A stretch of 64,000 bases of DNA from Octopus sinensis (Eukaryota): assembly GCF_006345805.1 (NCBI RefSeq), contig NC_043006.1, positions 50,778,001 through 50,842,000 of the forward strand, in the 5' to 3' direction. Position 1 is the stretch's first letter, and every line of letters starts with the position of its first letter. Of this stretch, positions 16 to 22,323 are shown piece by piece. Made by a program: the position numbers and the translations under genes. A model generated the notes under the pieces. The model did not search any database. It saw only the letters and a program-made list of their open reading frames with translations, and was not told the DNA's origin.

Positions 16-587
16 TAAAACATTATTGGTGAATTGAAGAAATGGAGCTGAACGCAGATTGAACAGAATCGTTTTATTTCATTCTACACGTGTTTCGAAA
101 GGCACAAATTACCAAAATCCGATTGAATAATGGGACCATATTGTGTCTTTCTCTTCAGGAAGAAAAAAGGAAATCCGTTGGAAAAACAAAAACAGAACAG
201 AGGCAGAGCAAAAAACAAATCGAATGTGCTCCTAAGAGCCCATGGGCTCTTAGGAGCACAGTTCGATTTGTTTTTTGCTCTGCCTCTGTTCTGTTTTGTT
301 TTTCCAACGGATTGCTCTGCCTCTGTTCTGTTTTTGAATGGTAATTTGTGCCTTTCGAAACACGTGTAGAATGAAATAAAACGATTTCTGTTCAATCTGC
401 GTTCAGCTCCATTCTTCAATTCACCAATAATGTTTTAATTTCAATTATCCGCACCAACGCACGGTTGCAACGCCAGATGGTTGTACCTCCAACCGTGCTG
501 TTCACTGCTGTGATTTTTGCTACTAAGGTATCGGTTAAACTTTTGATTAATCTACTACAAGATTATTCATCTTCTATTTCACATAAT
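16..587. mobile_element. Fold-back (inverted) Penelope-like pLTR-type repeat, copy 1
   Basis: Palindrome 16-437 centred on GAGCCCA|TGGGCTC (242/243), with inner arms 172-312 and outer arms ~16-114/338-437. A tail runs to ~587 and (TA)n flanks both sides. It contains a hammerhead motif; the PLE assignment is inferred from the HHR plus inverted architecture. Confidence 0.65.
77..165 (-). ncRNA. Minimal type I hammerhead ribozyme
   Basis: Minus strand: tttcttc-CUGAAGA-GAAAGACACAA...UUGUGCCUUUC-GAAA-C-ACGU-G-UA-gaaugaaa. The core is intact, helix II is 10/11 bp and helix III is palindromic (ACACGUGU). GUA cleavage predicted between 85 and 84. Confidence 0.8.
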
Positions 588-823
588 ATATATATATATA
601 TATATATATATATATATAATTCAACCCGGGACCTACATATATATATATATAATATATATGTATGTATAAATGGATATATATATGTATATATATATATATA
701 TATATGATATATATATATATATATATATATGTGTGTATATGTATATAATATATATATATATATTATATATATATATATGTGTGTGTATAAGTATAAATGT
801 ATATATATATATATATATATATA

Positions 824-1397
824 TAAAACATTATTGGTGAATTGAAGAAATGGAGCTGAACGCAGATTGAACAGAAATCGTTTTATTTCATTCTACACGT
901 GTTTCGAAAGGCACAATTACCAAAATCCGATTGAATAATGGGACCATATTGTGTCTTTCTCTTCAGGAAGAAAAAAGGAAATCCGTTGGAAAAACAAAAA
1001 CAGAACAGAGGCAGAGCAAAAAACAAATCGAACTGTGCTCCTAAGAGCCCATGGGCTCTTAGGAGCACAGTTCGATTTGTTTTTTGCTCTGCCTCTGTTC
1101 TGTTTTGTTTTTCCAACGGATTGCTCTGCCTCTGTTCTGTTTTTGAATGGTAATTTGTGCCTTTCGAAACACGTGTAGAATGAAATAAAACGATTTCTGT
1201 TCAATCTGCGTTCAGCTCCATTTCTTCAATTCACCAATAATGTTTTAATTTCAATTATCCGCACCAACGCACGGTTGCAACGCCAGATGGTTGTACCTCC
1301 AACCGTGCTGTTCACTGCTGTGATTTTTGCTACTAAGGTATCGGTTAAACTTTTGATTAATCTACTACAAGATTATTCATCTTTCTATTTCACATAA
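824..1397. mobile_element. Fold-back Penelope-like repeat, copy 2 (tandem duplicate of 16-587)
   Basis: Near-identical to 16-587. The differences seen are single-base indels, mostly in homopolymers. Confidence 0.65.
886..973 (-). ncRNA. Minimal type I hammerhead ribozyme (tandem copy)
   Basis: Same fold as 77-165. CUGAAGA at 966-960, GAAA at 905-902, predicted cleavage 894/893. Confidence 0.8.
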
Positions 1398-1760
1398 TAT
1401 ATATATAATATAATATATATATATATATAATTCAACCCGGGACCTACATATATATATATATATATATGTATATATGTGTATATGTATAAATGCATATATA
1501 TATATGTATATGTATGTATATATGTGTATATGTATAAATGCATATATATATATATATGTATATATATATATATTTATGTATATGTATATATATATATGTA
1601 TATGTATATAATAATATGTATATGTATATATATATGTATATATATATGTATATTTATATGTATGTATATATGTATGTATATGTATATATATATGTATGTA
1701 TATACATATATATATATATATTCATACATACATACATACATACTCGCGCACACACACGTG
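1396..1760. repeat. Compound (TA)n/(TATG)n microsatellite
   Basis: Directly visible; explains the Y/I/M-rich ORFs. Confidence 0.95.
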
Positions 1761-2253
1761 CTTATTTACATACAGCTCTAAGCTTATGGGAATGTAATGT
1801 TTTAAAGATCAGTCCAATTTTTCTCTATTATAGATGTGTCATATACTTCCTGAGTCATTCTATTGTACATGACTTCGCACTAATTATTATTTTTGTGCAA
1901 TTATTTATTTTTGTAATTGTATGTTACATTTTCCCCATAAATTCTTCATTATCAAAATAAAATTGCCATCGTCACCCCGCAGTTCCGTTTTCTTCAGACT
2001 CGATTACGTTGTTGTATATTTTGACTTTATGTAATTCAAGTCTACATTTTGGCATCATCATTGTCATCTCTTTCTCTCTCTCTCTTTCTCTCTCTCTCTC
2101 TCTCTCTCTCTCTCTCTCTCTCTCTCTCTGTATGTATGATTGTGTATAGAAGAATGTATTACTCAAAGTATTTCAAACTTTGTCTGATTTTCACGTTTTA
2201 TTTACAATCTTATAATATAATGAAATGATAGAATATTAAATGTCCATTCTGAT

Positions 2254-19100: not shown

Positions 19101-19224
19101 TATTCCTTTCGTTCAACACACTATTTCGCCTCTTCATGCGGACCAGTCCTTGCGGTTTCAAGCTTTCAAATGTTCTCTTCTTTTCTACTCAGTGCACAAG
19201 TATTGCTGACTTGTGGGTTTGTGT

Positions 19225-19480
19225 GAGATCGCCCCCACCGCCTTCCTATGGCCGAGAATGGGCAGGTAATTTTCTACTGTTTTGGGGTCTATGGTAAAAG
19301 AGGTTTTGTGGCAGACGAGATTGAAAGGATCGAAGACAGTCAGTCCTTATTAGGCCAAGCTTCCATCAACTTTTGCAAGTTCCAATCTGAAAGGGAAGCG
19401 CGAGTGGAGAGAAAAGCGCCACCTACAGGAAATATATAAAAAAAAGTGGGTGAATGTAGCGAGAATGGCTCGGAGGAATG
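19225..19480 (+). mobile_element. Decayed Tx1 ORF2 C-terminal fragment
   Basis: WQTRLKG...GQASINFCKFQSEREARVERK...WVNVARMA matches the C-termini at 61340-61560 and 63440-63620. Confidence 0.7.
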
Positions 19481-21927
19481 TTCTATAATCATGCACCTGT
19501 AAGCCAAACTATACTTAGAAGAGAAGGACTTGCTTCAATACTCCTCGTGCACAGATTAACTCGAGATTAGAGGAGTTCCTTGGTCGCCTCTGGATGTTCT
19601 TCCCTCTGTTAGGGTATTTTATGGTTATAATTTTCTTGTTAATCGCTATTCTTTTTATTATTTTCACCAGTTTATATAAATCATCAGTCCTTTGTCTTTG
19701 TAGTGTTCTAAATGTATATTGATATAAACGAACTTATGTCTATTTGTATGTATTTTTTAGAATCCAGTGCTCAGTAGAACAACAACAGTATTTCACGTTA
19801 GCAGTATGGATTCATGTCTAGTTATATGCACTTTCCACTGATATTAAAATATGAATGCAGTACAGAGTACATTAAGATTTGTTAAAATACCGCTAATGTA
19901 GTTATACTGTAGCAGAATAACGTTTATAGTTAGATTGTATCTTCGTTTTCCTTCCATCCTTAATAATGTTTGAAATGTTTATTCTATACAATATTCTTTC
20001 AACATACTTTCAATGTCTTTAATAAAACAGACCCAACGGAAAGGTGAACACAAGTGATTCAGTATTTTCTCATGAACTTATTGAATATGGTTATTTCTAC
20101 AGAGCATTCACTTCTTGAAGTAAAGATAAAAATAGATGACAACTCTCAAAGGAGAAAAGTTTACAAGTGCATAACAAAGAATATAATTCTTGACAATATT
20201 GTATACGGAGACCTCTCTATCTGTGTGAACTTTATACCATTTCAAACACTTCAGAAGAAAATACAATTTCAAAGGAAATAATGTTATTTCCTGGTTCTCT
20301 ATAAAATTCCAACAATCAAAGAGCTACTAGTGTTAACTGTGGAATTTCCTCGAGTACTGCTAGAAGTTATTATTATTATTATTATCATTATTATTATTAT
20401 TATTATTATCATTATTATTATTATTATTAGCATTATCTCAGTTAAACATTTTTAGTTAAAAACATCAAGAGATTTTTTTTATTAAAAATTATTTGCTTGC
20501 GTCTTGGGGAAGCATTTTTGGTTAACGAAATGTTGAAGACCAACACAAAAGTATGAGGTTAACAAAACGGTTGGACGGAAAGATTCCATTGAAATATTCG
20601 TGGTTTGCTTGAAAATGTTTAAGATTAATGTGAATATCCAAGGTTTACAAATATTTCTACTGTTAAAAATCTTCCCAAGTTTAATAAACACAGCATGGAA
20701 AATTTCTGATAATATTCACATTTCCCATTAGTATTATTTTATTGAAAGACAAATATCTCTTTTGACAGCTAAACTGTCGATGTCTTCACAGAAATTGCGG
20801 CGAACCATACAAGTTGTGCTAATTATACATAGTGTGTTTAATGGGATATTCTTTTCAATATTTCTAATAGTAAAGGTCTGCTCTTATATCGCGAATGCTG
20901 TTGCTTGTGTTGTCCCAATCAAACCGGATTTGTTTATTCATATACGGGCTATCTAATTCGTGCAAATATTCGCAATGTAAAGGTATATGTTTGTAGTTAT
21001 TCGCTGCAAGCTATGTTCCATCAGAATATTTGATTTTACTGTAGTTGTAGATCCAAACCGTTGATGTTTCAAGTTCAAATCGATATTTGGTGAATAATTT
21101 GACGTCACCGTTGTCATTGATTTACTGCCTTGTAAATCTATTCTAAACTGATCAGTTACAATGCTCCCCTACCTCTTGAAAGTTTTCTTCCAGAGCTCAA
21201 TGTACAGGCAGATAATATCAATCACCTCATTGAATCATTTACAAACATACTGACTTGAAAGTGACAAGGGTTTTTGTTAATCCAAATAGGCCTTACTTGC
21301 ATGTAAAATATCTCGATCACTTCGTCTTATAAAGTGTAAAGAATTCGGGAGAGATCTGCGCTTTTTTTATTAGAGTATTGCAATTTTTATATCAAGCTGT
21401 AGAAATCTGTCGCTCATTTTCTGATATAGACTCAAAACATCTTGTAACTTTCAAAGTTTCTCCGTTAAGGGTAGTTGTGGAGTATCTAAGTTTGGGAAGG
21501 ATCCTATAAAAATCTTATTGATAGTCCGGACATCAAATTTAATTGGATTAATCAACCTGACTGTTAATATCTTTAAATATTTTAAGTGTTTCAGCTTTAG
21601 GGCTGTGGTCATGCTGGGGCAACTTTAAAACCTAACTTACAATCTTCGACAGTGATAACATTAGGGCGATGTGATTTTATGTGTGAGTATATCAATCTCG
21701 TATAATTTTATTTCTTAATGCATAAATTTATTAGTGTGTGTTTTGAAGTCCTGCTCTTGGTTGGAAATCAGGATTAGTAATAGATAATACTTTTGGTTTC
21801 TTACTGAAAACTTAAGAGCTAAATTGAATTTAGCTTCTTGTATGGTTTAGCAAAAGCTAGTCTATACCAGCAAAGCTGATTTGCTAGATCTATAACGTCA
21901 TTTATTTCAGGTAGATAATTGAGGAAT

Positions 21928-22323
21928 GTAAAGTATACTAGCCATCTCAATATGGCTAACCACTAAGGGTGGTTGTTACTGTAACTTTTTAGCCCCATGA
22001 GATCATCGTCTCCAGTTGGCTTTAGGCACACTTTCTGCGCTCTTATGATATTTGCAAAGGGATGTCATCCCCTCTCGTAAACCTAAGTGATACGCACGGA
22101 CTGCAATTTCGAGATTTTTGTCTCTTGTCAACGCACGGTAATCGCCGGTTTTCGTTGAGGAGAGACCTGTTTGCGAATATCTATTTAATGTTTTTCCCAG
22201 TAACCACTGTCACTGATTTCGAAAAACGGTCTGAAAGCAATAATAAATCTCTGAACGAGATGTAAACAGTAACCGCTCGACAACGTAAAGTATACTAGCC
22301 ATCTCAATATGGCTAACCACTAA
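21928..22323 (-). mobile_element. 357-bp terminally redundant element carrying a hammerhead
   Basis: Exact 39-bp direct repeat GTAAAGTATACTAGCCATCTCAATATGGCTAACCACTAA at 21928-21966 and 22285-22323. Confidence 0.75.
22091..22140 (-). ncRNA. Type I hammerhead ribozyme with U3-A8 compensatory core
   Basis: Minus: CGUGCG-UUGACAA-GAGA-caaaaa-UCUC-GAAA-U-UGCA-G-UC-CGUGCG. Helix I is 6 bp with two GU pairs; GUC cleavage between 22099 and 22098. Confidence 0.7.

Follow-up and report, generated by a model that had tools for sequence, protein, structure and literature searches.

Hammerhead-bearing ends of Penelope-like elements and a LINE-targeted 357-nt repeat in a 64-kb window of the Octopus sinensis genome

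The window analysed here is a stretch of 64,000 nt from the 2.72-Gb Octopus sinensis assembly GCF_006345805.1 (contig NC_043006.1, positions 50,778,001 to 50,842,000), AT-rich and laden with microsatellites. Eight hammerhead ribozyme sites, proposed earlier from the letters alone in what is called below the sequence-only reading, resolve into five repeat families (A: 77, 886; B: 11071; C: 22091; D: 2254; E: 3668, 36250) and one unconfirmed single-copy match (60313). Families A, B, D and E are 3' ends of Penelope-like elements (PLEs), and C is a 357-nt non-coding repeat with a probable promoter of the small nuclear RNA (snRNA) type, at whose predicted start a long interspersed element (LINE) of Tx1 type inserts in other copies. 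The features, in window coordinates, are as follows.

16-245 (-): family A, 5'-truncated 3' end (pseudo-LTR, pLTR) of a Hydra-like PLE; the short 3' end abuts (TA)n, and identity with the pLTRs of the full-length copies L296 and L297 is 97-99%
77-165 (-): intact family A hammerhead; core starting at 158, helix III (ACACGUGU) spanning 86-93, cleavage predicted between 85 and 84
240-592 (+): head-to-head inverted partner of the first A copy, with a long 3' tail of ~150 nt; the 3' half of the hammerhead alone remains (~340-385)
824-1054 (-): second family A copy, hammerhead 886-973, within an 808-nt-offset duplication of 1-692
1049-1403 (+): inverted partner of the second A copy
2147-2331 (-): family D, old 3' end of a Neptune-like PLE; hammerhead 2254-2298, U.U at the base of helix II, helix III ACUACU
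3609-3733 (-): family E, old 3' end of a Neptune-like PLE; minimal hammerhead 3668-3703, helix III ACGU, G5 changed to A
10991-11204 (+): family B, related to A; the 3' end of a Hydra-like PLE, truncated on its 5' side and abutting (TA)n, with an intact hammerhead at 11071-11169 (core starting at 11084, helix III ACAUAUGU)
21929-22323 (-): family C copy of more than unit length, a 357-nt unit plus ~37 nt of terminal redundancy (21928-21964 = 22285-22321)
22091-22140 (-): family C hammerhead; U3-A8 core UUGACAA (22125-22131), 4-bp helix II, helix III AUUGCAGU, GUC cut site
22143-22159 (-): inferred transcription start, and the point where the LINE enters other C copies; reads AACG here, where most copies have ATCG, and holds no insertion
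22207-22219 (-): snRNA-promoter-like proximal element with an ATCAGT core, ~61 nt upstream of the LINE insertion site and inferred start
36181-36380 (+): decayed family E copy (the ~36250 site), helix II partly deleted, adjoining (TA)n
60313-60353 (-): unconfirmed hammerhead-like match; single-copy DNA, two mismatches in the core

A strict type I descriptor (core, helix II of 3-4 bp, helix I of 3 bp and one inner helix III pair, both strands) gave exactly four matches in the window, at 77-165 (-), 886-973 (-), 11071-11169 (+) and 22091-22140 (-), each with a CUGANGA/GAAA/UH or U3-A8 core and with helices I and II paired; the copies at 2254, 3668, 36250 and 60313 fail it. In 100 block-wise dinucleotide shuffles of the window the mean was 0.1-0.25 matches (maximum 2-3), and a palindromic helix III of at least 6 nt, found four times in the real window, did not occur in any of them. 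Genome-wide occurrence was sampled in 100 evenly spaced 10-kb stretches (1 Mb) from eight large contigs, using a relaxed descriptor that does not require the palindrome. This sample returned 26 matches versus 4.4 in 8 shuffles, and 12 of them have a self-complementary helix III (10 by Watson-Crick pairing alone; six distinct strings) versus 0.125 in the shuffles. At ~10-12 palindromic hammerheads per Mb the genome would hold of the order of 30,000, provided that the sample is representative. Several of the matches represent additional hammerhead families (L170, L182, L186, L193, L212, L222, L227, L232, L234), with helix III strings such as ACAGCUGU, ACCUAGGU and ACGGUGCAUCGU and 11-nt odd palindromes such as AUCGGUCCGAU. 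Chance matching in AT-rich sequence can practically be dismissed as a general explanation: enrichment and family conservation refute it for the four strict matches, and it fits only 60313-60353 and some of the 16 other matches of the sample, several of which are odd-length palindromes with a central mismatch. The 60313-60353 site was rejected as a family, as its genome search returned itself alone and the 1-Mb sample held no match to it. The Rfam hammerhead models detected none of the eight window sites, and Rfam microRNA matches were microsatellite or fold-back artefacts under the gathering scores.

These results bear out the core of the sequence-only reading, which had named the four intact hammerheads (the only strict matches), their helix III strings ACACGUGU, ACAUAUGU and AUUGCAGU, and a diverse genomic population of such ribozymes; density exceeds that of shuffled sequence in both the window and the sample. 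Its weaker sites fared unevenly. The hammerhead family at 2254-2298 is real, although this copy, with U.U in helix II and a non-palindromic ACUACU as helix III, fails the descriptor. The supposed degraded copies at 3668 and ~36250 do belong to a family, E, but 60313-60353 is single-copy DNA with two core mismatches. The statement that the flanks are unrelated was wrong. The sites at 77 and 886 are one element in a duplicated block (97.4% identity over 698 nt), A and B align through the hammerhead and 3' flank (68% over 134 nt, E 7e-5), and 3668 and 36250 are of the same family (E 3e-16). The block at window 1-1450 is duplicated together with its flanks, with mostly small-indel differences, and is either a true tandem duplication or an assembly duplicate. 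Lodging in or near (TA)n, also claimed, applies to six of the eight sites, which lie 28-61 nt from such a tract while 9% of the window falls within 70 nt of one; it does not apply to 3668 (890 nt away) or 22091 (1720 nt).

Copies of each family were collected from the genome; first-look candidates numbered 304, 2188, 2493, 1430 and 2526 for A to E, which are not copy numbers, and 40 were scored per search. Longer copies of A and B continue upstream into the open reading frame (ORF) of a C-terminal endonuclease (EN), which in A stops ~600 nt before the hammerhead. Two A loci, L296 and L297, have an uninterrupted 899-codon frame flanked by two hammerheads 3.6 kb apart, in the order pLTR-ORF-pLTR, and frames of at least 860 aa occur in 8 of 150 scored copies. 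The A protein has RWL, DKT, PMGS and YRDD motifs, CNLC (CxxC) and CPH (CxH), and is without CCHH. Family A thus presents in full, as recognised by motifs and homologues, a reverse transcriptase (RT) with C-terminal GIY-YIG endonuclease upstream of a hammerhead-bearing pLTR; B, whose EN region is 50% identical to that of A, shows EN and linker region only, its Hydra motifs being read in EN alone. Relatives of the RT among the 120 matches listed include one from Argonauta hians. At their 3' ends, 28/30 A and 29/30 B loci carry (TA)5, versus 32/90 and 17/57 flank windows, and copies stop at one of two fixed 3' ends ~150 nt apart. Their 5' ends vary, and an inverted copy lies upstream in 12/30 A and 15/30 B loci. 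The 5' truncation, partial tandems, inverted 5' copies and 3' tail typical of PLEs are found in the four families, inverted copies excepted in E.

As in the Hydra clade of PLEs (Craig et al. 2021, PMC8557442), a single RT-EN ORF is present with RW(L) and DKT, CxxC/CxH surrounds a conserved E and N, CCHH is absent, the hammerhead lies in the pLTR and insertion is into (TA)n. Unlike the clade, which is generally <3 kb, family A measures 3.6 kb with an ORF of about 895-899 aa; the 3' tail is ~150 nt here as against 30-40; and A and B target (TA)n without the CxCX5C linker (PMC8557442). All 8 aligned database relatives have this linker, one of them with wider spacing, as do L094 and a third family in the genome; at its position A and B (L296:2238-4934, L297:2700-5396, L096:1637-2839) have a ~130-residue Asn/Ser-rich stretch. 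Lacking it, they are best described from their sequences as a Hydra-like variant and not as plain members of the clade. The supplement of PMC8557442 lists an octopus element, Hydra-1_Obim, with a hammerhead; compared by eye, the A hammerhead and protein differ from it and the two are different families. The third Hydra-like family (L266-L295) is young and has an intact linker, and its domain type gave 17,072 first-look candidates.

Families D and E, with pairwise identities of about 85% and 83%, are older. Upstream of the hammerhead, EN remnants of the CX2-5CxxC/CCHH type were recognised in 3/3 long D loci printed (of 20) and in 3/6 E loci printed (of 25). E holds remnants of both RT and EN, D of EN and the linker region only, and the Neptune motifs were read from broken frames. 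The tentative likeness to the Neptune clade (PMC8557442) consists of the CX2-5CxxC linker, the C-terminal GIY-YIG and a CCHH-like pattern, in broken fragments alone. An inverted copy was absent in 20/20 E loci. The U.U at the base of helix II is family-wide in D, and ACUACU of the 2254 site is one base off the AGUACU of most of the 20 D loci. In the window copy of E, the hammerhead at 3668-3703 is likely dead.

That all sites are unrelated non-autonomous hammerhead retroelements (retrozymes), as the sequence-only reading had supposed, is very improbable. It holds for C, and in every family the majority of copies, taken as they stand, are short and lack coding capacity; yet A, B, D and E extend into EN/RT ORFs, A with intact 899-aa ORFs, A and B are homologous and E is present twice, which refutes it for four of the five families. 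The link to GIY-YIG/RT PLEs that the same reading proposed to look for is thus found, since longer A, B, D and E copies run into coding remnants or ORFs. Its term non-autonomous suits the non-coding C and not the other four, which are 5'-truncated ends of RT/GIY-YIG-coding PLEs. Its assignment to the dimer-type type I hammerheads of PLEs and retrozymes was sound on both counts, with PLE parents for A, B, D and E and a retrozyme-like C.

The C unit has 42% GC, is non-coding (longest frame 60 codons) and has a predicted circular fold with z -4.2. Of 30 loci, 25 were kept for counting, L065, L075, L076, L083 and L090 being removed as duplicates. Twenty of the 25 are longer than one unit on a single strand, 14 have an inverted part upstream, and one (L080) is a tandem. 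There are two fixed 3' ends and a weak (TA)n bias (7/30 vs 24/203). Having the structural marks of a retrozyme (150-450 nt, non-coding, low GC, type I hammerhead, tandem copies), C is retrozyme-like by structure, the only non-coding family of the five. With animal non-LTR retrozymes (PMC7229834; bioRxiv 10.64898/2026.07.22.740005) it shares the 357-nt size, 42% GC, lack of coding capacity, tandem and monomer copies, type I ribozyme and stable predicted circle. It differs from retrozymes and from newt satellite 2 in its U3-A8 core with an 8-nt palindrome, in being mostly dispersed monomers with PLE-type inversions, in combining an invertebrate host with an snRNA-type element, and in hosting a target-specific LINE.

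It is rather improbable that C is instead the pLTR of a coding PLE yet to be found, or is moved by the Tx1-type LINE instead of PLEs. The C loci examined numbered about 50 among some 2,500 candidates, which leaves room for such a parent, as does the common unplaced contig loose end at window 22271. Against these options, what precedes C in the 30 printed loci is either the tail of the unit itself, an inverted copy or flanking DNA without relation to it, and across 60 C loci the 5' end of the LINE is the sole identifiable non-unit sequence shared directly at the element edge. No coding parent was seen in these loci, and tblastn with 13 Hydra-type proteins gave only insertions in unrelated flanks. 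The two fixed 3' ends, the inverted 5' copies and the absence of poly(A) are all PLE-like. At 22271 many contigs from public runs (52 in X16, 5 in X1) exit the C unit into a common different sequence, possibly a related family or a partner element; a pattern search of the assembly from this loose end gave 0 matches. In X13 a contig joint jumps back by one unit, which fits tandem DNA as well as a circle.

In the majority of C copies helix III is ACUGCAGU, as compared with AUUGCAGU in the window copy. Subfamilies carry ACUGCAGU, ACUAUAGU, ACUCGAGU or ACUAGU, each self-complementary, and co-vary in helix I, in helix II (A-U to G-C) and in the core (U3-A8, U3.G8, C3-G8). Over families and C subfamilies together, the same core alternatives covary and a GUC, GUA or GUU cut triplet persists. 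The dimer type is marked by a short self-complementary helix III that is unstable as a monomer, which agrees with the sequences and with the energies predicted for families A-C (-6.5 to -11.1 kcal/mol for the duplex, +2.4 to +4.5 for the hairpin of a monomer). Helix III thus retains self-complementarity while its sequence changes, as had been suggested from the window alone, and does so within family C as well. The PLE pLTR hammerheads described by Cervera and de la Pena (2014, PMC4209133) likewise have a type I fold, a palindromic helix III, many families per genome, mostly solo truncated copies, opposite-strand pairs 100-700 bp apart, a U3-A8 variant and an extra base after A9 (here in family E). 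Unlike them, A and B have helix II arms of 50-55 nt and 8-nt palindromes, and E has a family-wide U at position 6. Two of the three supplement files of PMC4209133 contain no cephalopods.

On a rival view, what preserves the palindromic hammerheads is a role as a signal for protein binding or RNA pairing, or slow ribozyme action assisted by protein, and free dimer cleavage is not under selection. It draws on the low in vitro rates (PMC4209133) and on the protein dependence and dispensability reported in PMC11167929, on the family-wide non-canonical features of D (U.U) and E (U6), and on the one Hydra-like family without a detected hammerhead. The core covariation and conserved cut triplet across families and C subfamilies speak for selected cleavage, as do the dimer-type retrozymes of axolotl, which cut efficiently (PMC7229834). 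We consider this alternative unlikely, though by no means negligible. The sequence-only reading went too far in stating that such hammerheads cleave efficiently as dimers, since poor or protein-dependent activity is reported for PLEs in PMC4209133 and PMC11167929, and efficient dimer cleavage for axolotl retrozymes in PMC7229834. Its expectation that the elements are probably unannotated is half right: an octopus repeat library annotates Penelope-like families (PMC13282606) and Hydra-1_Obim is listed with its hammerhead, but the main text of PMC13282606 is without mention of hammerheads.

The U2 snRNA begins with ATCG, and C was therefore examined for an snRNA promoter. An ATCAGT motif lies at -56 to -61 in 15/15 U2, 11/14 U1 and 5/6 U5 loci (31/35; L364-L399), which makes it a candidate proximal sequence element for this animal group. 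In C, ATCAGT stands at -57 to -62 before ATCG in 42 of 50 distinct segments. A matrix derived from 22 distinct snRNA sites scores best at this position of the C unit (10.9, next 2.0). Background positions reach this score at a frequency of 3.7e-5, and no position near the A, B, D or E hammerheads does so. The spacer between ATCAGT and ATCG varies in sequence across C subfamilies and keeps its length. By sequence and offset, C would therefore have a proximal element at the expected ~60 nt upstream of a start, and the predicted cut site lies 59 nt downstream of the inferred start. Capture of a U2 upstream region was rejected as the origin of C, there being no alignment beyond the short element. 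Newt satellite 2 offers a precedent for an internal snRNA-type promoter for RNA polymerase II (Pol II), according to a citation in PMC2220036.

Several C loci are interrupted at one site 10-25 nt upstream of the hammerhead core, and a search with window 22226-22290 returned C copies together with LINE junctions. The insert is a 5.3-kb two-ORF LINE with a zinc-knuckle (zf-CCHC) ORF1 and with endonuclease, RT and zf-RVT domains, flanked by 14-20-bp target duplications centred on TCATCG (L303, L359-361, L363). The label Tx1-type follows from the domain order, and we presume the likeness to the Tx1 clade. All 30 fetched LINE 3' ends join at ATCG. With the printed junctions read by eye, the sequence beyond ATCG is a C-type hammerhead unit in 22 cases; in 6 it is duplicated target and another LINE, in one a full U2 gene (recognised by Rfam), and in one other DNA. 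Domains, fixed site, target duplication and a single flank type in well over 20% of cases (22/30) are those of a target-specific Tx1-type element. Four 5' ends were fetched of 40 scored, and 3/3 new ones are preceded by the C promoter segment. In one case, L379, the LINE inside a U2 gene bears a C-type 14-nt leader that starts exactly at ATCG, as expected if the LINE template began there.

Occurrences of the LINE include L359:955-6217, L360:845-6161, L361, L362, L363, L303, L329-L358 and L400-L403, with one in U2 (L351/L379), and it also forms tandem arrays, three copies lying 5.5 kb apart on C6. In L331/L332 (~1790-1860, element strand) the C leader following a LINE 3' end reaches exactly to the predicted cut and is followed by the 5' region of another LINE; this may possibly be a trace of in vivo cleavage, and is a single event in a duplicated locus with 3-nt microhomology. 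Fragments of another Tx1/L1-like LINE, with ~67% DNA identity to the C-targeting one, lie in the window at 61357-63060 and 63691-63986 (-), the larger adjoining an (AGAT)21 array.

The U2 insertion lies at the first bases of the gene, as compared with that of Keno, which is reportedly further inside U2. Known targets in the Tx1 clade are U2 snRNA for Keno and the Tx1D transposon for Tx1, with Tx1-Mar as a further element; a figure legend adds satellites (PMC4494074). The present LINE resembles this clade in being a two-ORF endonuclease-RT element with a fixed site in multicopy repeats and one U2 insertion, and is unlike it in that the target is a hammerhead-bearing repeat, entered at the inferred start site some 25 nt upstream of the core. 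R2 is a co-transcribed LINE released by a ribozyme (PMC4494074, PMC6765202); here, by contrast, the ribozyme belongs to the target and not to the LINE.

Alternatively, the LINE could read only a short ATCG-centred sequence of which C is the most abundant match, with ATCAGT a relic or a chance occurrence and with no promoter or 3' processing gained. That the LINE also enters its own duplicated target and U2, and that Tx1-clade elements commonly target multicopy repeats (PMC4494074), would fit this. The constant length of the ATCAGT-ATCG spacer despite sequence change across C subfamilies, an offset equal to that of three snRNA classes, and the leader carried into U2 starting exactly at ATCG (one case) do not. 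We regard it as a serious competitor, on balance unlikely.

The reading preferred here, to which we give a probability of roughly three in four, is that the window holds the 3' ends of four PLE families and one 357-nt non-coding repeat, all with a hammerhead; that the self-complementary helix III likely pairs two copies to excise RNA from tandem transcripts; and that the repeat has a likely snRNA-type promoter whose predicted start is the target of the Tx1-type LINE. Reverse transcription would begin at fixed internal sites, giving the two 3' ends, and most copies would be dead-on-arrival fragments. Cleavage by the hammerheads would take place within tandem masters, whose spacing is 3.6 kb in A and 357 nt in C, or else between molecules, and would probably be slow or aided by protein. 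C would be transcribed by Pol II from its own snRNA-type promoter and cut 59 nt downstream, and its RNA probably circularised and then copied by PLE enzymes. The LINE, landing just behind the C start, would be transcribed from the C promoter, and the hammerhead downstream could supply its 3' end. The single copies in the window probably do not function: those of A are predicted to be trapped by folding back on their inverted partners (-300 kcal/mol), and D and E carry mutations. More tentatively, and with the balance tipping slightly the other way, C may be a minimal self-expressing RNA-circle gene, in which 357 nt accommodate a Pol II promoter of snRNA type, a start site and a hammerhead of the dimer type. 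It would be spread by Penelope enzymes, and the Tx1-type LINE, specialised on its start and probably shifting from or to U2, would borrow promoter and ribozyme processing, forming a three-tier PLE/retrozyme/LINE system.

Several points weigh against the preferred reading. Variation of helix III in C, the best evidence here for selected self-complementarity, reflects few independent events, and the change from A to B palindrome (CG to UA) could stem from CpG decay on two strands. In family E the core is mostly CUGUCGA with an extra A, and U stands at position 6 in 12/17 parsed copies (L120-L165), the minimal architecture being otherwise perfect. Dimer cleavage of PLE hammerhead variants was reportedly studied by Luense et al. 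in 2017, work that may already cover the position-6 variant. A change at this core position, A6C, lowers activity (PMC3088659). PLE hammerheads showed low activity even as dimers and trimers (PMC4209133), and one was inactive without protein and dispensable for insertion in vitro, with no RNA-seq ends at the cut (PMC11167929). No full-length copy of B, D or E was present among the loci examined. Pfam gave no RT or GIY-YIG match in the submitted PLE frames (A, B and one related family) and relatives; the clade names Hydra-like and Neptune-like are motif-based and provisional. For the third Hydra-like family, regular expression and descriptor found no hammerhead within ~1.5 kb downstream in 30 loci, the descriptor giving just 2 matches, both from other families; its long repetitive 3' UTR (untranslated region) may place a hammerhead further off. 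The 30 LINE 3' ends were fetched of 40 scored and 244 candidates, and are partly dependent (L329 is the query, L331/L332 are duplicates and L354-356 are one array). An automatic count found C after the LINE in 10/30, a low figure because diverged C subfamilies fail BLAST at the junction and align only further in.

Hammerheads in truncated PLE ends are of a published kind, and their abundance here extends the published pattern to this cephalopod genome, a modest result alone. The promoter-bearing, LINE-targeted C and the linker-less, (TA)n-targeting Hydra-like elements go further. No explanation of invertebrate retrozyme transcription was found in the retrozyme papers searched; C offers a concrete, testable promoter and start, and their likeness to those cited for newt satellite 2 would suggest that the design is either shared or convergent. 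The literature searched, with Repbase and subscription papers outside that search, held no description of a LINE that targets a retrozyme. If true, a LINE placed at the start of a ribozyme-bearing repeat would resemble R2 in strategy, except that the target provides the ribozyme, and the ORF2 of this LINE would be a candidate sequence-specific endonuclease. The natural palindrome variants within one family are ready constructs for the dimer hypothesis, and young, intact-ORF Hydra-like elements that target (TA)n without a zinc-finger linker allow a direct test of the linker-bias proposal of PMC8557442.

Two further features of the window were noted. A dispersed repeat of ~158 nt, presumably a tRNA-derived octopus SINE (short interspersed element), is present in seven copies (27170-27327, 41100-41441, 42129-42286, 51161-51318, 57274-57618). 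At ~2760-3400 (+), a GC-richer stretch gives the impression of a decayed Tc1/mariner transposase fragment.

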